The position numbers and the translations under genes were made by a program. Under the pieces are notes generated by a model. That model saw only the letters and a program-made list of their open reading frames with translations. It searched no databases and had not been told where the DNA came from. This document shows, in pieces, positions 7,441 to 61,803 of a DNA stretch of 64,000 nucleotides (its first letter is position 1; the number at the start of each line of letters is the position of its first letter). The DNA comes from an uncultured Candidatus Saccharibacteria bacterium (GTDB lineage Bacteria; Patescibacteriota; CAZHWT01): NCBI GenBank assembly GCA_964597145.1, contig CAZQWH010000001.1, positions 166,441 to 230,440 of the forward strand, read 5' to 3'.

Positions 7441-7497
7441 TGAGTTATTATACTATGGATCGGAATGGGTAGCTGCTTATCATTAACTGCGGAATGA

Positions 7498-8040
7498 CTA
7501 CCCTTGGCTGTCCATGGCTGGAGTAACGGTTCGGGACGGAGATTCGTTTGGAGGTAGTGGAGAATGCTCTAGCGATAGCATCATTGATATGTCTTCTACC
7601 GATGAGCCGGTATATTCATCGTCAAAAGTAGGTTTAAAACCAAGTTTGTTATAAAAATCTTTGGTATGGGGTGGATAGGTACTCTTAATCTTAACGTAAA
7701 TTTGCTCAAACCCTTGTTGTGTAAGAGTTCGACGGGCATGGTTAAATAATTGGGTTCCAACGCCCTGGTTGTGGTATCCACGTTTAATAATCAGGCAAAA
7801 TAGGTCAAGGCGAAGCGGATTAATAACATTACGCCTGCCCCCTAAAAACCCGATTACCACCCCTTCATGTAAAGCCATAAACAAGGTCCGAGCTTGAGGG
7901 TCCTCATCCAGGGCTTTGCCGGCTTGTTCTAAAATCAGTCGTCGATCTTGGAAGTCAAAAACATCAGAGTAAGCCTCTAGAATCGGAATAATTTTAGGGA
8001 AGTCCTGGTAAGAGCAGCGCTGGAGCAGTAATTGGTTCAT
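7498..8040 (-). CDS. GNAT family N-acetyltransferase
   Basis: Acetyl-CoA motif RGYHNQGVGTQLFNHA plus ...YNKLGF. Start is ambiguous: ATG at 8040 (MNQLL...) or the upstream start at 8112. Confidence 0.7.
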   Translation of the reverse strand: MNQLLLQRCSYQDFPKIIPILEAYSDVFDFQDRRLILEQAGKALDEDPQARTLFMALHEGVVIGFLGGRRNVINPLRLDLFCLIIKRGYHNQGVGTQLFNHARRTLTQQGFEQIYVKIKSTYPPHTKDFYNKLGFKPTFDDEYTGSSVEDISMMLSLEHSPLPPNESPSRTVTPAMDSQG

Positions 8041-9518: not shown

Positions 9519-10613
9519 TTAACTAGTTACATCACTCTCAATTACATCGTTGTTAGAAATAATGGTAGTAGGCCAGATCTTGCAGCCTGCAGCAATAACT
9601 ACGTCATCTCCAACTTGGGCATTATCCCCAATGGCTGTGCCAAAATAGGGTCGCTGGGTGTCAACCATTTGACCTTTAATAGCGGATTGTACTGTAGGGG
9701 AGGTAGTGGACGATGTAACTTTCAAACCCGATCCGAGTTCAACATTTTGACCTACAACCGAGTGGCTGAGTTGGCAATCTGGTCCAATAATTGCGCCACT
9801 GAAAATAGTGGAATCGGTAATAATGCTATTGTCGCCAATCGTTACGTTATCACCAATAACAGAGCTACCAGTAACAGAGACGTTTTCTCCAACATGAATA
9901 TTTTGGCCAAGAACCGGTTGACCGGTTAGTTTTTGATGGGCGCCAAGGATATGCCAAGGGTAGCCAATGGGTAGCCAGTAATCGACAACTTGAATGGTTT
10001 GAATGGGGTGAGTCTGAGCGAAGGCGGTAACGGTTTCGGTAAATTCGTATTCGCCCCGTGATGAAAGCTTAACCTGGTGATATAGATTAAAAATTTCGGT
10101 TGAAAGGAGGGCGGCGCCAGTGTAAGCTAGGTTGCCCATAAATTGAGCTGGTTTTTCAACGAGTTGAATGAGTCGGCCTTGTTGGTCGGCATTAAGGATG
10201 CCCCACTTTTCGGGATCGGTGACAGGTTGGCCAAGAACAGCAAACTCGTGTTGCAACAGTTGCTCAATGTCTTTAGGGCTATACAGGTCATCGCCATTCA
10301 GGCAGAGTAGTCGATGCTCGCCAGAGATAGAATGAGCTGCCGCCTGGTAGGCATTAGCTGTGCCGAGTGGTTGTTCTTGGACGGCAGTTGTAACTGGTAT
10401 AGGCCAATCATGATTATGGATATAGGTTGAGATTTGGTGGCCAAAATCGTTGGGTCCAATCACGACTATTACTTCGTCAACATAGGGCGCTACTGCTGAC
10501 ATATGATAATCTAAGAGTGGTTTATTTACGATAGGGATAAGAACTTTGGGGCGGGTGAGGCCAAGGGGGGCAAGTCGGGCACCGCCACCAGCTGCTAATA
10601 TAATTGCTTTCAT
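9519..10613 (-). CDS. Sugar-1-phosphate nucleotidylyltransferase with C-terminal left-handed beta-helix (GlmU/RmlA-like)
   Basis: N-terminal MKAIILAAGGGARLAPLGLTRPKVLIP (NTP_transferase G-x-G-x-R motif). C-terminal hexapeptide repeats (IGDNVTIGDNSIITDSTI...). Confidence 0.7.
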   Translation of the reverse strand: MKAIILAAGGGARLAPLGLTRPKVLIPIVNKPLLDYHMSAVAPYVDEVIVVIGPNDFGHQISTYIHNHDWPIPVTTAVQEQPLGTANAYQAAAHSISGEHRLLCLNGDDLYSPKDIEQLLQHEFAVLGQPVTDPEKWGILNADQQGRLIQLVEKPAQFMGNLAYTGAALLSTEIFNLYHQVKLSSRGEYEFTETVTAFAQTHPIQTIQVVDYWLPIGYPWHILGAHQKLTGQPVLGQNIHVGENVSVTGSSVIGDNVTIGDNSIITDSTIFSGAIIGPDCQLSHSVVGQNVELGSGLKVTSSTTSPTVQSAIKGQMVDTQRPYFGTAIGDNAQVGDDVVIAAGCKIWPTTIISNNDVIESDVTS

Positions 10614-10653: not shown

Positions 10654-10842
10654 TTATTTTTCGTCACGAATCGTCAAACTTTGACTCTCTTCGTTATATT
10701 CAATAACTATCCTTTGCCCATCACGCCAACCCAACTGGCGAATGTAGCCGATGGGCAACGTTACAAAGTAAGAGGGGTTTTGGCTAGAGCCAGTTTGGCC
10801 GAGCTTACGGATATTTTCTTGACCAGATACACGACGAGACAT
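10654..10842 (-). CDS. Small AbrB/MazE-like (SpoVT-AbrB fold) protein
   Basis: 62 aa; LPIGYIRQLGWRDGQRIVIEY resembles a swapped-hairpin DNA-binding domain. A degenerate copy of the AT palindrome lies in its upstream region. Confidence 0.3.
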   Translation of the reverse strand: MSRRVSGQENIRKLGQTGSSQNPSYFVTLPIGYIRQLGWRDGQRIVIEYNEESQSLTIRDEK

Positions 10843-10857
10843 ACATGCTCCTTTAAT

Positions 10858-10885
10858 TTAATTATATAATAAAGTATATAAGTAA
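10858..10885. repeat. Degenerate copy of the dispersed AT-rich palindromic element (TTAATTATATAAT-AA-AGTATATAAGTAA)
   Basis: 11 of 13 matches in the second arm to the consensus seen at the five intact copies. Confidence 0.5.
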
Positions 10886-10961: not shown

Positions 10962-11594
10962 CTATCTGGCTCGAACAAAGAATGAGTGCCACTTAGTTCG
11001 AAGGCTGCGAGGTTGATAGACATAGTCAACCAGTTCAAAGCCAGATACTTCCAAAACCGGCTCAAACTCTTCGCGCGTCCAGTAAGTAAAATGACGGTAC
11101 ATTTCTTGATCATCAATGGTCTCAACCTCAATCGTTTCACCCCGACCGTCTTTGAGCGAGATAAAACCAATCCCGCCAGGCCGTTGAGTATGTCGAATCT
11201 GCTTCAGTGCTTGATAGATTCGCAGCCGTGGAATATGAAGCAGCACCGCCGATGCCCAAAACCCGTCAAATGAATTATCAAAGCTGAGGTCATAGACGCT
11301 CTGCTCAATGAAAGTGTGGCCAGGCAGAGCTTGGCGAGCTATCTCGAGCAAACCTGAAGAAATGTCAGTGCCAACATAGTGGTAGCCAAGCGCGATAAGC
11401 TCCTTAGCATCGCGGCCTCCGCCCGAACCAATTTCGAGAATTCGACCCTGAGGCAGGAGTTGGTGGAACAAATCCATTTCCAGCTCCCAATAACCCGGCT
11501 CACCATGCTCGGCAGACCACTGGTGAGCGGCCCGATCGTAGTAACCAAGTGTCAGCTCCTCCTCGGGCAGTAACGGCAGGTGATGGTTGGCCAT
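10962..11594 (-). CDS. Class I SAM-dependent methyltransferase
   Basis: Motif I ILEIGSGGGRD. ATG at 11594 preceded by AGGAGAG. Supplied ORF extends to 11627. Confidence 0.75.
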   Translation of the reverse strand: MANHHLPLLPEEELTLGYYDRAAHQWSAEHGEPGYWELEMDLFHQLLPQGRILEIGSGGGRDAKELIALGYHYVGTDISSGLLEIARQALPGHTFIEQSVYDLSFDNSFDGFWASAVLLHIPRLRIYQALKQIRHTQRPGGIGFISLKDGRGETIEVETIDDQEMYRHFTYWTREEFEPVLEVSGFELVDYVYQPRSLRTKWHSFFVRAR

Positions 11595-11779
11595 TGTATT
11601 CTCTCCTGATGAAAGGCCATAGATCAACTGCTGTGCTTATACCGAAAGTACCTGAGGTTGTCAAATGTAATAAAGACCCCATCTACTTATTGGGCTAACA
11701 ATACCCACCAGTAATATCTTCAAATTTAAATCCCCTCCTCAACCAATGTATGATAAGTTTAACTGAGATAATATACATG

Positions 11780-11805
11780 AATTATATAATTAATTATATA
11801 ATTAA
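11780..11805. repeat. Dispersed AT-rich palindromic element, copy 1 (AATTATATAATT x2 + AA), with CTGAG flank at 11763-11767
   Basis: Same core and same orientation of the upstream CTGAG(T/A)TA flank as copies at 37446, 51858, 56880 and 61029. Confidence 0.8.
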
Positions 11806-37289: not shown

Positions 37290-37445
37290 TCAGCAAGTAA
37301 ATACCACCGGTAACCGGTGCGAGTAATCCGAGTGTTCTACGAAGTTTCCTCAAGGTGTCTGGCCTTACCAGCCTTCGTCAATAAGGTAGCAACCAACCAC
37401 CTTCCTACTAGGCATGATAGTCATAAATTACTGAGTTATTTTAGG

Positions 37446-37473
37446 TTAATTATATAATATATTATATAATTAA
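37446..37473. repeat. Dispersed AT-rich palindromic element, copy 2 (TTAATTATATAAT-AT-ATTATATAATTAA), CTGAG flank at 37431-37435
   Basis: Perfect 13 nt inverted arms. Identical to copy 4. Confidence 0.8.
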
Positions 37474-38067
37474 TTTATAAGGCTAATTTTCAATTTTAAA
37501 CGATTTTTTGTCCCAAGTATCAGTCAGGAAAAACATGCAACCCCAGAGACAAAACAGGCCTCACGTTTTAGTCTAGCGGAGTAGTGCCAATGACGAAATT
37601 TTACGTCAAAAATGGGGCTTTGTCGTCATTGCTAGTAAAGCGCAGCAATCTTGCCTAAGGTGTAATCCAAACGTAAAACTCCGATTTAATCGGGGTAGGT
37701 TGTCCCCGTCTACCGTGCTGCGCAAGCAGACAGGGCAGGCCACACGGAGCCTGCCCTGAACTTGCTAAATAGAGTGATAGGTATACAAAGTATTCAGTGC
37801 TTGCAATAAGATAGCTCTACCATGCAACTTGCTGCCGTCAGCGCAATAAATTGAATTTCATAGTTTTCGCCAGCACATAAGTGGCCACATCCTCTCTTCC
37901 TGTAGCGATCATCCCCACCAACGTCAAGCAACCTGTATCTCTAGAGTTCTAACGCAACGCGGCAGATGCACTAGACATCCAACCAGTAGAGGCAAGGGGC
38001 TAAAATGCCTAAAACCCAAGCCCCCTGCCTGGAACCTGGAATCCGAAACCTGCTATACTAATGCCCT

Positions 38068-39858
38068 ATGAAGCAAAAAAAATGGGTAATAGCCGACCGT
38101 CTCGACCCTGCCCTAGAGCAGCATTTACTCCTCTCCCGATTACAACAGACGAACAGTAGTGCCGAACAGTATCTGCATCCGTCACTCAGCGATTTAAGCG
38201 CTCCAGCCAGCTTTACGGGTATGCAGCCCGCTGTTGAACGAATTATTCAAGCAATTAACAATCACGAGTCAATCGTAGTTTGGGGTGATTTTGACGCCGA
38301 CGGGGTCACCTCCACTGCCATTATGTGGGAAACGTTGCATCAGCTTGGCGCAATGGTTATGCCCTACATTCCAAACCGGGATACTGAAGGCCACGGGTTT
38401 TCGCCAGAAGGTGTTAAAAAACTGCTAGACGACCAGATTGGGTTGGTGGTTACGGTCGATCATGGCATTACCGCCATCGACGAAGTCGAAGCGCTCAGCA
38501 ATCAAGGTATTGAAGTGGTAGTTACCGATCACCATGAACCGAGACTCGCTAAAAGCGAGCAAAAGACAAAAGACAAAAGACAAAAGACAGAATTCGAATT
38601 GCCAGATGCCGTGGCAGTAGTCCACCCGCTCTTAATGGATAGTCCTCAACCACTAGCTGGGTGTGGCGTGGCGTACATGCTAGCATATGCGGTGTGGTTA
38701 GCGCATAGGTTTCAGGAATTTTCTAAATCCGACGTATTAGAAACCCGTCAAGAATTTGCCCAAGGTAAAATTGAACTGGCGGCCATTGGCGCCATTGCCG
38801 ATATGGTACCGTTGCTGGGGGATAACCGGGTATTGGCAACATATGGCCTCAAATCGCTCGTTAAAACAAGCCGGCCAGGTCTACAGCAAATGTACCGTTT
38901 AGCTGGAATGGAGGATAAACAGCAGTTTGGTGCCTACGAAATTGGCTTTGGGATTGGGCCACGCCTTAATGCACCAGGCAGGTTAGGCGATGCGTTGCAG
39001 AGCTTGCGCTTGCTTTGCACTAAAAATCTGCACCGTGCTACTCAATTAGCACAAGATTTAGATAGCCTAAACCAAAAGCGCCAAGAGTTGCTGGCCCAAG
39101 TTGCCGAGGAGGCAAAAACCGAAGTTTTAAAGCATACAGACGGGGTCTATGTCCTAACCAAACCCAACTGGCCTGCGGGGGTATGTGGCTTGGCGGCCGG
39201 CAAAATTGTGGAGAGCCTGTATCGGCCAACCGTAGTTATGGAATGTATGGGCGAGTTATCACGCGGATCAGCCCGGTCAATCCGTGGCTTCGATTTTACG
39301 GCAGCTTTAACCAGCATCGCCGACCTATTAGAAACCTACGGCGGACACGCTATGGCAGCCGGTTTTGTAGCCAAAACCGAGAATTTACCCCTCATTGAAG
39401 AGCGGTTAAGCGAATTACTATGGCAGCAGTTCGACAAGGACTCCCTCCACCCTCAGCTAATGATTGATGCCGAAGTTAAGTTGGATGAACTAAGTTGGGA
39501 TCTACATGCGTTTATTTGCCAGCTAGAACCATTTGGCATGGGTAATCCTAAACCAGTCTTTATTTCTCGCAATCTGGAAGTAATTAATCACCGCCTAGTG
39601 GGCAGCGACGGTAAGCACTTAAAGCTAACGCTCGCCCAAGGGGAAAGGGAAAAGGGAGAAGGGGAAAGTGGCCAAACCCTTAACCCCTTCAATGGTATTG
39701 CCTTCAATCTTGGCTACCTAGCCGAACAACTCAAGCCCGAAATTAAAGTTGATGTGGCGTACCAGTTAGATGAAAATATCTGGCAAAATCGACGTAGCTT
39801 ACAGCTTATGATTAAAGATATTCGAATAGTGAAAATGAAAAACGACCCCTTGGGCTAA
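38068..39858 (+). CDS. recJ: Single-stranded-DNA-specific exonuclease RecJ
   Basis: DHH motifs (VWGDFDADGVTS, VVTVDHGITA, VVTDHHEP), DHHA1 domain and C-terminal OB-fold. ATG lies 8 nt after TGCTATACT. Confidence 0.9.
   Translation: MKQKKWVIADRLDPALEQHLLLSRLQQTNSSAEQYLHPSLSDLSAPASFTGMQPAVERIIQAINNHESIVVWGDFDADGVTSTAIMWETLHQLGAMVMPYIPNRDTEGHGFSPEGVKKLLDDQIGLVVTVDHGITAIDEVEALSNQGIEVVVTDHHEPRLAKSEQKTKDKRQKTEFELPDAVAVVHPLLMDSPQPLAGCGVAYMLAYAVWLAHRFQEFSKSDVLETRQEFAQGKIELAAIGAIADMVPLLGDNRVLATYGLKSLVKTSRPGLQQMYRLAGMEDKQQFGAYEIGFGIGPRLNAPGRLGDALQSLRLLCTKNLHRATQLAQDLDSLNQKRQELLAQVAEEAKTEVLKHTDGVYVLTKPNWPAGVCGLAAGKIVESLYRPTVVMECMGELSRGSARSIRGFDFTAALTSIADLLETYGGHAMAAGFVAKTENLPLIEERLSELLWQQFDKDSLHPQLMIDAEVKLDELSWDLHAFICQLEPFGMGNPKPVFISRNLEVINHRLVGSDGKHLKLTLAQGEREKGEGESGQTLNPFNGIAFNLGYLAEQLKPEIKVDVAYQLDENIWQNRRSLQLMIKDIRIVKMKNDPLG
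38561..38588 (+). repeat. Heptanucleotide tandem repeat (AAAAGAC)x4 inside the recJ coding sequence
   Basis: Four perfect tandem 7-mers encode KDKRQKT within a Lys-rich insertion. Confidence 0.85.
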
Positions 39859-42582: not shown

Positions 42583-42844
42583 GGCTGGCATAGCCAGTTG
42601 AATATAGGATACAAGATACATAAATGCGGGATGCGGAAGACGAAAGACAGAAGATCGAATTACGGGACTGCTGGACGATTAGATGCGAAATTTGAATATT
42701 GAAATTCAAAACAAATCCTAAGCTCGAAATCAGAAATACCAAACCCAACAACCTAAAGCCCGATATTCGATATACGATCTTCGATCTACGAGCCCCCTTC
42801 CCCGTCATTCTGGAATGAAGCCTAGCGAAGAGATAGAATCCCTT

Positions 42845-42896
42845 CTACAGTCTACAGTCTACAGTCTACAGTCTACAGTCTACAGTCTACAGTCTA
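42845..42896. repeat. Heptanucleotide tandem repeat (CTACAGT)x7.4 immediately upstream of the aspS -10
   Basis: Seven perfect 7-mers ending 9 nt before the TG-n-TATAAT extended -10 at 42903-42911. Confidence 0.9.
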
Positions 42897-48517: not shown

Positions 48518-48997
48518 GTAGTTGGCAGGGCGCATGGAGTGTGCAAGATTAGTTACTGCTAATTAGCCAGCACTTGTTGCTCTGAGTTGGTGATTTTGGT
48601 ACAATCCGAAGCGCTGTCATAGACAGCACAGTAGCTGGTATTTGGTATCTTGTATGGGTTATATAGGCGTAGTCATTCTGGACTGAAGCCAAGCGTAAGG
48701 ATAGAATCTCTATCTACTAACTACAGTCTACGAACTACTGCAAGCAAAGCTTGCTGCGGCATCACCTCAACCGTCAGGTTGAGTAACCAGCTATAATGAA
48801 GGAAGCTTAACGGATAAGAACTAAATAATTGCTGCGAGATGGTGCTACGTAGTGGTTTTCTCTATGCCAACGAGCAATAGAATAGGCAAATTATGGATGA
48901 CGAAATATAATTGAGTCCAATTGCATCACATTCCGATGGAACATCGGAAAAGGCTTTGAAAGTTGGAAGAGATAATTTAATATAGTCAGACTAATAT

Positions 48998-50378: not shown

Positions 50379-50523
50379 GTAAGATAAAAACCTATAAGCA
50401 ATGCCCTCACGACCCCAGCGGGCTGAGGGCTACTCTTACACTTACCAAGTGGTTATCCCTTGACACATAACTTTCAAGGGCGTAATAGTTAAAGCATAAT
50501 TCAACTGCCTCAGAAAGGCAGTT

Positions 50524-51210
50524 ATGTATATTCCTCAACCTAACTTTGCAAATGGTGAAATTTATCACATTTATAACCGCGGTATTGACCGCCGGCCGAT
50601 TTTTACCAACAAGCAGGAATATCGTCGGCTAATCCAATCCTTAGCCTTTTATATCCCCACCGACACCTCCATTCGGCTCTCTCATTACTTGGTGATGAGC
50701 CAGGGCGATCAACAGAAAGTCGACCTTCGCCGCCAAATGGCTTCTCGACGCGTCTCCACGCTCTCATACTGCCTGATGCCTAATCATTTTCATCTATTAC
50801 TTCGTCAGGAGAGCGAAGGTGGTATTTCTGAGTACTTAAGACTGTTGCAAAACAGCTACGCCCGCTATTTTAATATCAAACACTCTCGGTCCGGAGCTTT
50901 GTTTGAAGGTATATTCAAAGCAGTCTATATCGAATCACAACAACAATTAGTCCATGTTTCCCGCTATATTCACCTCAATCCCTACACGGCCTACCTTGTG
51001 AAAGATCCCAGCAACCTTGCTAACTATGCCTGGTCATCATTGCGTGACTATGTCGCGCCATCGCCGACTAGTTTTATTGACACCCAGACAATTCTTAGTG
51101 ATTTTTCCAGTACCTCAGCTTACTATGACTTTGTACTTGATCAGGCCGACTACCAACGCAGTCTGGTAAAATATGGACATCTAATCCTTGAGGATGAAGT
51201 AAAAAGCTAA
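50524..51210 (+). CDS. rayT: RayT/IS200-like HUH (Y1) transposase
   Basis: YHIYNRGIDRRPIF...YCLMPNHFHLLL (HuH motif) ...NSYARYFN...HVSRYIHLNPY (Tyr-containing helix). 228 aa. Imperfect hairpins at about 50405-50433 and 50495-50518. Confidence 0.7.
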   Translation: MYIPQPNFANGEIYHIYNRGIDRRPIFTNKQEYRRLIQSLAFYIPTDTSIRLSHYLVMSQGDQQKVDLRRQMASRRVSTLSYCLMPNHFHLLLRQESEGGISEYLRLLQNSYARYFNIKHSRSGALFEGIFKAVYIESQQQLVHVSRYIHLNPYTAYLVKDPSNLANYAWSSLRDYVAPSPTSFIDTQTILSDFSSTSAYYDFVLDQADYQRSLVKYGHLILEDEVKS

Positions 51211-51278
51211 GTGTCAGGAGATAACCACTTGGCAAGTATACGGAATTTAAGAGCCGATCTATTTGCTATACTTCCACT

Positions 51279-51794: not shown

Positions 51795-51857
51795 TAACCT
51801 ACCCAGATAATATCCTCTATCATTCCTGTTATTTATATTTATCTGAGTTAATTACAT

Positions 51858-51885
51858 TTAATTATATAATTTATTATATAATTAA
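51858..51885. repeat. Dispersed AT-rich palindromic element, copy 3 (TTAATTATATAAT-TT-ATTATATAATTAA), CTGAG flank at 51843-51847
   Basis: Perfect inverted arms. 125 nt upstream of the ogt start. Confidence 0.8.
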
Positions 51886-52010: not shown

Positions 52011-52517
52011 ATGACTAATCTAAAAGTGATCAGCACACGCACACCAGATGGCCCGTTTTCTATGGTGGTAGACCAGGCTGATATTGTCCGACTATCGGGG
52101 TTTAGTGATGTAGAACAACTAGCTAAACGTCTGCCTCGGAAACTACAAGGGTTGCCAATAAGCCCAGTTACGAATCATCCTTATATACAAGCGATAAAAG
52201 CTTATTATGACGGAGATACCGCCGCGTTGGTGAACATTCCCCGTAGCCAGAATGGCAGTCACTTTCAAGAACAAGTCTGGCGAGCAATTGACCGTATTCC
52301 TCTTGGCCATACCCTAACCTACAAACAGTTGGCCACGGCCTCCGGCTACCCTACCGCTGTACGAGCTACAGGAACAGCCTGCGGCGCAAATAAATTGATC
52401 CTGCTTGTACCTTGTCACCGAGTACTCAAAAGCGATGGAGGTATTGGCAGCTATCTTTACGGTTCAGCTATTAAAACATCGCTACTTAGGCACGAAAAGG
52501 TGCTACGTGGCTCTTAA
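52011..52517 (+). CDS. ogt: Methylated-DNA--protein-cysteine methyltransferase (Ogt/MGMT)
   Basis: ...TYKQLATASGYPTAVRATGTACGANKLILLVPCHRV... with the intact PCHRV active site. Confidence 0.85.
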   Translation: MTNLKVISTRTPDGPFSMVVDQADIVRLSGFSDVEQLAKRLPRKLQGLPISPVTNHPYIQAIKAYYDGDTAALVNIPRSQNGSHFQEQVWRAIDRIPLGHTLTYKQLATASGYPTAVRATGTACGANKLILLVPCHRVLKSDGGIGSYLYGSAIKTSLLRHEKVLRGS

Positions 52518-56739: not shown

Positions 56740-56879
56740 GCAAGTAGGCTTTCAGCGGTCAAATGGACAAAGTTGGCTTCGAAAGCTACGCAGCAGATAA
56801 TTACCCGGCCAGGAATTCATAATACAGTGAATTCATAGTGCAACCTATGATTGCAATAATTTACAGAGATAAAATAAGT

Positions 56880-56907
56880 TAATTATATAATATATTATAT
56901 AATTAAT
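56880..56907. repeat. Dispersed AT-rich palindromic element, copy 4 (TTAATTATATAAT-AT-ATTATATAATTAA), CAGAG flank at 56865-56869
   Basis: Identical 28-mer to copy 2. Ends 17 nt before the NUDIX stop codon. Confidence 0.8.
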
Positions 56908-56924: not shown

Positions 56925-57398
56925 CTACTTTTGATATCGCAGATAGTATTCTTCAAGGACTGGTTGAAAGTTTCGGTATTGATTGAGGAAGACGAGATAT
57001 CCAGGGAGTTCGGCTAGGTTTACCCATTTATATTGTTGAACTTCGGTACGATCTAGTTGAATCTTGGCGTCGGGGTTGATCAGTCTAATGTAGACATGGT
57101 CTTTGTGCTGTCCCTGGTAGAGGTGGGTAATGGGGCGGTCTTCATCAATCATATCCTGCGGGAAGTCGTAAATATTTGGGTAGGATGAAACACCCAAGAC
57201 TTGCAAGTCGTGAGGGTTTAGGCCAAGCTCTTCACCTACTTCGCGCACGGCGTTTTCTTCTGGACTTTCTCCCTCCTCACGTCCCCCACCTGGGAAGTTC
57301 CATTCATCTGGTCGGTAGCTCTGATGTCGAATAAGTAGCAGATTGTTATTCTGATCAAAAATCAATGCATGCGCGCCGAGTCGATACGGTTTGTTCAT
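56925..57398 (-). CDS. NUDIX hydrolase
   Basis: Nudix box GGGREEGESPEENAVREVGEELGL. Confidence 0.9.
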   Translation of the reverse strand: MNKPYRLGAHALIFDQNNNLLLIRHQSYRPDEWNFPGGGREEGESPEENAVREVGEELGLNPHDLQVLGVSSYPNIYDFPQDMIDEDRPITHLYQGQHKDHVYIRLINPDAKIQLDRTEVQQYKWVNLAELPGYLVFLNQYRNFQPVLEEYYLRYQK

Positions 57399-59928: not shown

Positions 59929-60573
59929 ATGTCAAAAGTAGTCGCTAACATATCAATGTCACTGGACGGCTTTATCGCCGGGCCCAATCCGACCCTCGAA
60001 GAGCCACTGGGTCAGCGTGGTGAAGAGCTACATGAATGGGTAGTCAAGTTGGCCTCTTGGCGTCAAGCTCATGGTATATCTGGTGGTGAGACGGGGCCCG
60101 ACAACGATATTATGGAGGCGTCGCAAGAGAATGTGGGGGCCGTTATTATGGGGCGCCGGATGTATAGTGGTGGTGAAGGTTCATGGGCAGATGATCCAAA
60201 CCCTGATGGTTGGTGGGGTGATACGCCACCATTTCATGCTCCGGTCTTTGTTCTGACTCACCACCAGCGAGAAACTGTGACCAAAGAAGGTGGCACTTCC
60301 TTTATCTTTGTGACCGATGGGATTGCCAGTGCCTTGGCTCAAGCCAAAGAAGCCGCTGGTGATAAGGATATCTCGATAGCCGGTGGGGCTAGTGTCATCC
60401 AGCAATGCATGAAAACGGGTCAAGTAGATGAGTTGCACATTCATCTGGCGCCGATCTTACTGGGCAGCGGCACACCTTTGCTGGTTGATCTGGGAGAGGC
60501 TAAGTTGGAGAAAATTGAGGCTATTGATGCTTCGCCTTATGTTACTCACCTCAAATTTCGGATAAAAAAGTAG
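59929..60573 (+). CDS. Dihydrofolate reductase-family protein (RibD C-terminal domain-like)
   Basis: MSKVVANISMSLDGFIAGPNP...IMGRRMY...PVFVLTH...ISIAGGASVIQQCMKTGQVDELHIHLAPILLGSGTPL is the canonical RibD_C/DHFR-like pattern. Confidence 0.75.
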   Translation: MSKVVANISMSLDGFIAGPNPTLEEPLGQRGEELHEWVVKLASWRQAHGISGGETGPDNDIMEASQENVGAVIMGRRMYSGGEGSWADDPNPDGWWGDTPPFHAPVFVLTHHQRETVTKEGGTSFIFVTDGIASALAQAKEAAGDKDISIAGGASVIQQCMKTGQVDELHIHLAPILLGSGTPLLVDLGEAKLEKIEAIDASPYVTHLKFRIKK

Positions 60574-60978: not shown

Positions 60979-61028
60979 AGAACCATATTGATATACATGC
61001 TATCGTAAATTATCTGAGTTATTTTATA

Positions 61029-61056
61029 TTAATTATATAATAAATTATATAATTAA
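61029..61056. repeat. Dispersed AT-rich palindromic element, copy 5 (TTAATTATATAAT-AA-ATTATATAATTAA), CTGAG flank at 61014-61018
   Basis: Perfect inverted arms. Flank TATCTGAGTTATTTTA is identical to the copy 2 flank. Confidence 0.8.
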
Positions 61057-61287: not shown

Positions 61288-61803
61288 TTAGGTGACAATC
61301 GAGTAAACCTGGACCGAATTAATTTGAGCCTGTTTACCAAAGCTATTGAAGGTGTAGAAGTTGCCAAACTCCACCATACCACCATCGGCAAATTTAAGCA
61401 CGCCATTGGCGGCTGCCTGGTTGCCATGGGTAATGATGGAATGGATAATTAATTCGGTGACGTGTGAGCGGTTAGCATCTTGGGTTAAAAGAGCTTCAAC
61501 CTGGTCCCTACCAGCAGCACGTTGGTGACCATAAATGTTAAGTTTGATGTCGTCGCTGACCATGGCCACAACAGCCCGGATATCAGCCTGGGCATTAGCC
61601 ACACAAAAATCGTAGATATAGCGCTTTTTAGGCGCATTACCACAATCTAGCCCAGAGGTAACCGTAATCATATTCACATCATACACTGTCCTACCACTAG
61701 TGTCATTCATATAATTTATTAGTTTAGGTTTCGGGGTGTAAGAGTAGGCACTATAAAAATTGCTGTAAACAAAAATAACCAACACCTCCGCATAGCGCTC
61801 CAC
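61288..61803 (-). CDS. NTF2-like/SnoaL-like fold protein (hypothetical)
   Basis: ...YIYDFCVANAQADIRAVVAMVSDDIKLNIYGHQRAAGRDQVEALL...NGVLKFADGGMVEFGNFYTF resembles the SnoaL-like pattern. Start uncertain, possibly MNDTS at 61710. Confidence 0.35.
   Translation of the reverse strand: MERYAEVLVIFVYSNFYSAYSYTPKPKLINYMNDTSGRTVYDVNMITVTSGLDCGNAPKKRYIYDFCVANAQADIRAVVAMVSDDIKLNIYGHQRAAGRDQVEALLTQDANRSHVTELIIHSIITHGNQAAANGVLKFADGGMVEFGNFYTFNSFGKQAQINSVQVYSIVT

Follow-up and report, generated by a model that had tools for sequence, protein, structure and literature searches.

A dispersed palindromic repeat in a Saccharibacteria genome as the probable tandem operator of a small AbrB-fold regulator

We analysed a stretch of 64,000 nucleotides from an uncultured Candidatus Saccharibacteria bacterium (assembly GCA_964597145.1, contig CAZQWH010000001.1, positions 166,441 to 230,440; hereafter the window, numbered from its first base), in which a dispersed AT-rich palindrome had been predicted to occur in five intact copies and one degenerate copy. 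The window was searched for the pattern TTAATTATATAAT-NN-ATTATATAATTAA with at most three mismatches. Six sites matched: copy A, the degenerate one, at 10858–10885 (two mismatches), copy B at 11778–11805 (one mismatch, with its repeat units at 11780–11803), copy C at 37446–37473, copy D at 51858–51885, copy E at 56879–56906 and copy F at 61029–61056. The expected number was 0, and 100 dinucleotide-preserving shuffles of the window, whose G+C content is about 45%, gave 0 matches. The predicted set of copies was thereby confirmed, and its coordinates were right in general, save that 56880–56907 was off by one base for copy E. All six sites are intergenic. The 10-mer ATTATATAAT occurs 11 times in the 64 kb, each time within the six sites; it stands single only in the degenerate copy and is paired at all the others.

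The original prediction described most copies as a 13-2-13 inverted repeat and its first copy as two tandem units without a spacer. There is no real difference between the two: a single geometry describes all, in which each copy consists of two units of the self-complementary 12-mer AATTATATAATT that start 12 bp apart. The 2-nt "spacer" is the variable junction between these two units, and it differs among copies (AT, TT, AT, AA and TA). To the left, the flank C(T/A)GAG(T/A)TA lies exactly 7 nt from the palindrome (TTAATT) in all five intact copies and always on the plus strand. The sequence CTGAGTTA occurs five times in the window, three times within the palindrome flank. An AT-rich stretch with ATG or TTG is found about 31 nt left of the palindrome in the intact copies, and the likeness among them reaches about 36 nt leftwards, which yields a module of about 74 nt (repeat family D1). 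Comparison of the copies to the right of the palindrome revealed no similarity. Rfam, at gathering thresholds, found two tRNAs in the whole window and nothing else, and a literature search with the 10- to 13-mers matched only primers and organelle sequences.

Beside copy A, a gene for a protein of 62 amino acids (aa) lies at 10654–10842 on the minus strand, with its start 16 nt from the palindrome; it encodes the candidate cognate regulator. The lead was found by similarity clustering of every open reading frame (ORF) located at most 400 nt from the motif in all fetched loci, where one small protein family recurred beside the motif across unrelated genomes, namely the window and two Patescibacteria assemblies. 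The homologue in WFTD01 (locus L035) starts 14 nt from a three-unit array, and the homologue in JACZRJ01 (locus L031) starts 11 nt from a two-unit array. The 62-aa protein matched Pfam PF04014 (MazE/SpoVT-AbrB) at E=4e-5 and 23.9 bits, just missing the gathering score of 24.7 bits, and 29 of 31 aligned family members matched PF04014 at E≤0.01 (best E 3e-7). Its AlphaFold2 monomer model, with a predicted local distance difference test score (pLDDT) of 77, is arranged as beta-beta-alpha-beta-beta (E14-17, E24-27, H31-37, E45-50, E55-60). When the model was compared with the PDB by Foldseek, the Sulfolobus AbrB-like "histone-like protein" 5ITM was matched with a probability of 0.99, MazE and SpoVT with 0.95 each, AbrB with 0.63–0.87, Sso7c4 with 0.47 and C68 with 0.10, and VapB was also matched; the tiny size of the domain makes the E-values of these matches weak (0.17–2). 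Searched with a profile, PDB sequences gave AbrB only as a marginal match (E about 0.5), and NCBIfam contained no model for the protein. As modelled, the 62-aa protein carries the SpoVT/AbrB swapped-hairpin fold, from which dimerisation and DNA binding are predicted. The family comprises 582 clusters at 50% identity (E≤1e-3), and nearly all of its members are 57–63 aa long.

The regulator gene is followed, 40 nt downstream, by a sugar-1-phosphate nucleotidyltransferase gene (9519–10613, minus strand; NCBIfam Arch_glmU-like, E=2.6e-72). This gene order is kept in the orthologues P0002 and P0003, and the nucleotidyltransferase gene is the probable operon partner of the regulator gene. Glycosyltransferase clusters lie downstream of the homologues P0005, P0028 and P0010, GalT lies downstream of P0011, and the remaining homologues precede polysaccharide deacetylase, methylase or unrelated genes. 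No toxin gene follows the regulator gene in any locus examined, in the window or among the homologues. A type II toxin-antitoxin module of the MazEF or VapBC type was therefore rejected, the downstream genes being sugar-nucleotide, glycosyltransferase or unrelated genes. Two further neighbourhoods were noted: homologue P0009 (L134 3784-6315) precedes a DpnII-type restriction-modification cluster, not sugar-nucleotide genes, and homologue P0007 (L136) has a uracil-DNA glycosylase gene two genes downstream of it.

The upstream DNA was examined for the 13 homologues that could be placed on DNA, which belong to close relatives or to assemblies of Patescibacteria (Candidate Phyla Radiation, CPR). 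In all 13 an array lies about 10–50 nt before the ATG; 12 of these are clear and that of P0010 is weak. The arrays consist mostly of two or three units in a 12-bp register. Direct periodicity at a lag of 12 was present in ten of the 13, at a level reached by no more than two of 1000 shuffles; the non-periodic three are P0007, which is a 12+12 inverted pair (TGCTACTGAATT AATTCAGTAGCA), P0023, whose ACTGA-type array is degenerate, and the weak P0010. The window protein itself is preceded by the degenerate array TTAATTATATAAT AA AGTATATAAGTAA. At the position of copy A, the orthologues P0002 (82% identical) and P0003 (69% identical, syntenic locus L117) have intact arrays, AATTATATAATT TATTATATAATT and AATTATATAATT AATTACGTAATT AATTACGTAATT, respectively. 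In the units of P0003, TATA is replaced by TACG, and since the change is symmetrical, self-complementarity is kept. P0004 and P0005 have three units of AATTATATAATT, P0020 (L031) two units of the AATTATATAATT type, P0014 two units of AGTTATATAATT, P0028 three units of AAATACGTATTT, P0011 three units of GCTCCGGAGC with the core CTCCGGAG, and P0009 the array AATTACTGAATT AATTCAGTAATT AATTCAGTAATT. The unit sequence thus shifts with the protein, in at least five classes: AATTATATAATT, AGTTATATAATT, AATTACGTAATT, AAATACGTATTT, (A/G)CTCCGGAGC and AATTACTGAATT. A GC-rich unit such as CTCCGGAG cannot serve as a −10 element, and loci with such units have TATAAT-like hexamers of their own close by; the arrays are therefore taken to be operators, not promoters as such. 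In the predicted beta1-beta2 loop, the three proteins of the ACTGA class have KLTK.GGG(K/R)-S in common, and those of the TATA class have KL(M/I/G)K.G.G-S instead. This loop motif is a plausible specificity determinant, in what is a small sample.

In the regulators' own upstream regions, TTGnnn stands 16–18 nt before an in-unit TATAAT or TATACT, and these promoters score 9–11 of 12. In the promoter of the window regulator, read in the orientation of the gene, 17 nt separate TTGCCG from TATACT, and the ATG follows 16 nt past the array. Given this spacing, the −10 element together with the start site would be covered by the array, as in classical autorepression. Array position and co-variation with the protein together mark a putative autoregulated transcription factor and its operator. 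The suggestion that the palindrome might be a genome-wide operator bound by a dimeric regulator thus gained support, both from the candidate gene beside copy A and from the co-varying arrays of its homologues.

We consider that the palindrome is the operator of the 62-aa regulator, reused in scattered intergenic promoter-like modules in this lineage, and assign this reading a probability of about 0.6. Its components differ in strength. That the palindrome is a tandem operator of the adjacent AbrB-fold regulator appears likely; whether the dispersed copies function as promoters is close to an even bet. We infer binding, repression, promoter activity and the spread of the modules alike from sequence. 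Under the proposed mechanism, each 12-bp AATTATATAATT unit would be bound by one dimer of the 62-aa protein. Copy A overlaps the −10 and start-site region of the regulator's own promoter, so that binding there would lead to self-repression. The five intact copies would be occupied first, at lower protein concentration, because they match the unit consensus better than copy A does. As the unit contains TATAAT on both strands, bound protein and RNA polymerase would be direct competitors for the −10 element, and the modules would act as regulator-gated start sites directed rightward and possibly also leftward: two of them upstream of recJ and an MGMT-like gene, and three running into convergent 3' ends, where they might produce antisense or orphan transcripts or serve as binding sites only.

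The distribution of the motif was determined by searching one genome per prokaryotic species, a set without the source genome, for AATTATATAAT-NN-ATTATATAATT, and by a metagenome scan that required the left flank. The species-level scan yielded 90 palindrome loci. Single-copy matches in very AT-rich genomes are probably due to chance, and 12 single matches in viral contigs, mostly AT-rich giant-virus bins, were treated as chance too. Several many-copy assemblies have 40–46% G+C and often carry three units in the 12-bp register; they are Candidatus Harrisonbacteria PFBB01 (nine loci fetched), Patescibacteria WFTD01, Falkowbacteria JABMQE01, Saccharibacteria CAYVKO01 and Flammeovirgaceae QIDJ01. 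An identical 24-mer is multi-copy in Patescibacteria, Bacteroidota and Clostridia assemblies. Where the neighbouring gene is co-directional in CPR assemblies, the array ends 3–93 nt before the downstream start codon, mostly at 46–51 nt. In three low-GC rumen-type Clostridia assemblies, CADAHH01 (L010, L013, L021, L033, L057, L061), DOYA01 (L003, L006, L051, L059, L080, L084) and CAMZHI01 (L015-L073), a dispersed repeat of about 122 nt is built around the two units. Here GTTC/GAAC and a perfect TTGACA stand symmetrically on both sides, with a 15-nt spacer to TATAAT, and the conserved flanks are asymmetric. The L021 copy of this repeat is located upstream of ychF and between nrdD and nrdG.

The metagenome scan returned seven contigs (L092-L098), all from one sample, Ga0079224. 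They belong to a different organism of about 40% G+C and share with the window only a 53-nt module match, so the directional module is conserved in at least two organisms. Every one of these contigs reads ...taaattaC(A/T)GAG(A/T)TAA-N6-TTAATTATATAAT-NN-ATTATATAATTAAtttt, and the sub-consensus is genome-specific, with CAGAGATAA and a trailing aTTTTa in Ga0079224 as against CTGAGTTA in the window. Many of the motif loci lie at assembly contig ends (for example L007, L035, L047 and L078), and a Logan contig of the same organism as the window (L091 position 1; window 37448) ends exactly inside the palindrome of module C. The palindrome is an element that breaks short-read assemblies.

Together, the five intact copies of the window (B–F) and the seven Ga0079224 contigs provide 12 directional modules. 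Module B (11742–11805, plus strand) consists of the AT-rich flank, CTGAGA, 16 nt and the two operator units. Module C (37410–37473, plus) is followed by the co-oriented recJ (38068–39858) 597 nt downstream, and module D (51822–51885, plus) by a co-oriented MGMT-like DNA_binding_1 gene (52011–52517) 125 nt downstream. Module E (56843–56906, plus) lies between convergent genes and faces the 3' end of a NUDIX gene (56925–57398, minus). Module F (60993–61056, plus) lies between a RibD_C-like gene (59929–60573, plus) and a convergent SnoaL-like gene (61288–61803, minus). The earlier statement on gene context is correct: at 11778, 56879 and 61029 the copy points at the 3' end of a gene on the minus strand. 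In Ga0079224, the next co-oriented feature is a tRNA-Lys 216 nt downstream in L092, genes at 127, 80 and 146 nt in L093, L097 and L098, and dgkA at 135 nt in L095. No co-oriented gene follows modules B, E, F, L094 and L096, and five of the 12 modules face a 3' end. The roughly 590 nt between module C and recJ (37474–38067) contain no ORF; they hold G+C-rich hairpins (e.g. cagggcaggcc...ggcctgccctg) and have no Rfam match at the gathering score, and they could be a long leader or an unannotated RNA.

All 12 modules have the arrangement C(T/A)GAG(T/A), 16 nt, TATAAT of the first unit, and agree with the sigma-70 consensus at 9–10 of 12 positions. The likeness to a rightward sigma-70 promoter with 16-nt spacing, as first described, is thus real at the sequence level. 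An alternative reading takes the copies for ordinary sigma-70 promoters, strong or bidirectional, which arrived convergently at a doubled −10 consensus and have no dedicated regulator. TATAAT on both strands of each unit, the −35-like hexamer at 16-nt spacing, the perfect TTGACA on both sides of the Clostridia copies and the position of the CPR copies some 46–51 nt before downstream genes would all be accounted for in this way. However, 26 invariant bases are not normally common to promoters, the 10-mer ATTATATAAT is not seen singly in the window outside the degenerate copy, five of the 12 modules lack a co-oriented gene, and the arrays of homologues keep the 12-bp register even when they are GC-rich (CTCCGGAG, ACGT cores). 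We regard plain promoters as an improbable explanation. Across the 12 modules, the palindrome is invariant save for the unit junction and the outer 2 nt, and the surrounding module is 64–74% identical. This block-wise conservation favours selection on contact positions and disfavours very recent copying, which would be uniform.

Several observations weigh against the reading of the copies as operator-bearing modules of a regulon. The C(T/A)GAG(T/A) block is a poor −35 element, with three of six matches, and may be recognised by another factor instead of serving as a −35. It may also be a "−16 region" (compare TRTGn), forming an extended −10 for a TAAAAT-like hexamer. Such a hexamer ends 4 nt before the palindrome, a conserved xTG stands about 17 nt farther upstream of it, and transcription would in that case begin at the first operator unit. 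Seven of the 12 modules have a co-oriented gene or tRNA rightwards at 80–597 nt, three of the 12 lie between convergent genes, and the gene context of the set is about that of random intergenic placement. The methyltransferase gene left of copy B (10962–11627) has its own sigma-70 promoter (TTGACA-17-TATAAG at 11640–11670, minus), which is conserved in the syntenic relative L117 (about 7480–7520), whose regulator is 69% identical; because of this promoter, copy B is not needed as one. Finally, L117 (18.5 kb) and L127 (20 kb) both have the regulator, and only the autoregulatory site is present there. The dispersal of the module is therefore lineage-specific, and its source could be a copying mechanism instead of the evolution of a regulon.

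Such a mechanism would be provided by a non-autonomous mobile or self-copying cassette (a "mobile promoter", similar to a miniature inverted-repeat transposable element, MITE) that spread through intergenic DNA, the likeness to an operator being ancestral or incidental and most copies having no regulatory role. Copy B sits within about 370 nt that are missing from L117. The seemingly random placement relative to genes, with modules between convergent genes, the density of five modules in 64 kb, the breaking of assemblies at the element and the sub-consensus proper to each genome also fit a cassette, and propagation of promoters has been described before: promoter-like sequences that are nearly identical precede unrelated genes of a single genome (Matus-Garcia, Nijveen and van Passel 2012, PMC3488235). 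On the other hand, the modules compared have neither terminal inverted repeats nor target-site duplications nor similarity right of the palindrome, and no transposase is associated with them. A MITE in the strict sense was rejected, as the left end (ATG..TAAATTA) and the right end (ATAATTAA) are not inverted copies and share no duplication. Moreover, identity is concentrated in discrete blocks of 100% between variable positions instead of being uniform, and a cassette leaves unexplained why arrays co-vary with the regulator homologues that they precede. A cassette without a regulatory role is accordingly unlikely in our view, if still worth some weight.

Other features of the copy B locus were noted in passing. 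Translation of the methyltransferase probably begins at the ATG at 11594 (MANHHLP...) and not at the TTG at 11627. A 20-aa hydrophobic ORF (MKILLVGIVSPISRWGLYYI; 11663–11725, minus) with a strong GAGGAGGGG ribosome-binding site is found immediately left of module B, within the segment absent from L117. All Logan contigs spanning copy B contain it. Leftward promoters for the ORFs of 10–20 aa left of the copies were considered and discarded, as these ORFs are not mutually homologous and the neighbour of copy B has its own promoter.

The original prediction also offered repetitive extragenic palindromic (REP)-like elements, mobilised by the RayT-like Y1 transposase encoded at 50524–51210, as an explanation. 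A directional palindrome with a conserved 5' flank that is extragenic and often near gene 3' ends would suit REP elements, the window does encode a Y1_Tnp protein (Pfam E=8e-8), and weak transposase homologues lie 2–3 kb from the motif in L048 and L052, though not adjacent to it. This explanation finds no support at the transposase gene itself, on either side of which stand 38-nt inverted repeats of its own, unrelated to the palindrome (50437–50474 and 51203–51240; 84% complementary, pair I5) and probably the ends of the transposase's own element. No palindrome flanks the gene; the nearest, at 51858, is 650 nt away, past an Imm5-like gene. Furthermore, the stem consists of A and T only, a GTAG-type 5' tetranucleotide is absent, and the identical motif occurs in several phyla, unlike REPs, which are species-specific. 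Mobilisation by RayT is thus very improbable.

Equally hard to credit is a structural or recombinational element, be it a cruciform, an intrinsic or bidirectional terminator, or a crossover site of the Xer or invertase type. Its appeal lies in the perfect 13-nt inverted repeat, which at 28 bp overall resembles dif or hix sites, and in the two copies (10858 and 11778) that flank the methyltransferase gene. The variable central dinucleotide is, however, incompatible with serine-invertase crossover, and the 2-bp centre is too short for tyrosine recombinases, which need 6–8 bp. The three tandem units of the CPR copies fit a repeat array and not a two-armed site. As RNA, the hairpins fold only weakly (−6.7 to −10.7 kcal/mol), and there is no conserved U tract on either strand. 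With stems of A and U only and tails that differ among the copies, the suggested terminator module was not upheld, and a terminator scan of the window did not list the palindromes. A 3'-end or terminator element had also been considered from a crude tally of 0 divergent versus 8 convergent contexts in other genomes; it was dropped because the directional modules show divergent contexts and the CPR copies lie at a fixed distance from the downstream start.

A recurrence of repair and recombination genes beside the arrays was observed as well. In the window these are RecJ (38068), MGMT-like (52011) and NUDIX (56925); in Harrisonbacteria, a PolB-exo2 exonuclease, DinB, an ExoIII-family nuclease and Fpg; and in other CPR assemblies RecG (twice), RuvB and UvrD. 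The loci concerned outside the window are L008, L025, L064, L088, L002, L024, L032 and L074. These genes amount to about 11 of some 76 array-flanking genes, about half of them have the array at their 3' end, and none was found in the Ga0079224 or Bacteroidota loci. The pattern was spotted after the fact and is a lead only. Elsewhere in the window, the 7-nt unit TCTACAG is perfectly repeated in tandem about 7.5 times at 42844–42896, between the RelA/SpoT and aspartyl-tRNA synthetase genes, and a diverged partial copy of this repeat lies at 48713–48737.

Patescibacteria and similarly reduced genomes have very few transcription factors, and almost none with a known binding site. If the tandem-operator reading is correct, the operator of each member of this family can be read from the DNA upstream of its own gene, which would make regulon prediction possible in uncultured bacteria. 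The operator code is simple and modular, unusually easy to read and evolvable, and specificity appears to have switched several times among the homologues. The family would lend itself, as a natural system, to the study of how the swapped-hairpin fold recognises DNA. For annotation, a conspicuous assembly-breaking repeat that is easily mislabelled as a REP or a MITE would be explained. A far broader version can be imagined, in which the 60-aa AbrB-fold protein regulates globally in CPR-like bacteria with small genomes, its operator serving also as a consensus −10 element, and gates dozens of promoters per Mb in direct competition with sigma-70, biased to DNA repair and recombination, and controlling its own envelope-glycosylation operon, with the cassette copied to new sites. 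We think this rather doubtful; if it were true, copying of the cassette to new intergenic sites would rewire genes into the regulon.

The transition-state regulators AbrB, Abh and SpoVT of Bacillus are likewise small; they bind AT-rich promoter DNA at numerous sites in the genome and control their own expression. The 62-aa protein resembles them in the swapped-hairpin beta-beta-alpha-beta-beta fold, but AbrB has about 94 aa, a separate multimerisation domain and no sharp consensus site, whereas the protein described here has about 60 aa, only the fold and a basic N-terminal arm, and a strict 12-bp self-complementary unit. The MazE and VapB antitoxins are autorepressors on palindromic operators that overlap their own promoter. 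They share Pfam PF04014 with our protein; unlike in those systems, there is no toxin gene here, and many extra operators lie elsewhere in the genome. MraZ, another member of the AbrB superfamily, is encoded first in a cell-envelope operon and binds a short run of repeats at even spacing in its own promoter. It differs in its two fused domains, its large oligomers and its direct GTG-type repeats about 10 bp apart, compared with one domain and palindromic units with a 12-bp period in the present case. Among the best structural matches are the archaeal and viral proteins Sso7c4, the Sulfolobus "histone-like" 5ITM, pSSVx C68 and pSSVi C56, single-domain swapped-hairpin binders of about 50–60 aa, which come from archaea or their plasmid-viruses; we know of no defined tandem 12-bp operator array for them. 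The putative mobile promoters (PMC3488235) differ from the modules described here, which have discrete conserved blocks, a nameable cognate regulator and, in nearly half of the copies, no downstream gene. The REP/REPIN-RayT systems are alike in that their extragenic palindromes are dispersed and directionally flanked, and here too a Y1 transposase gene is nearby, but the present palindrome shows no association with that gene and is common to several phyla. In this comparison, the system would be an uncharacterised case of a well-known kind, namely an autoregulated transcription factor with its regulon.

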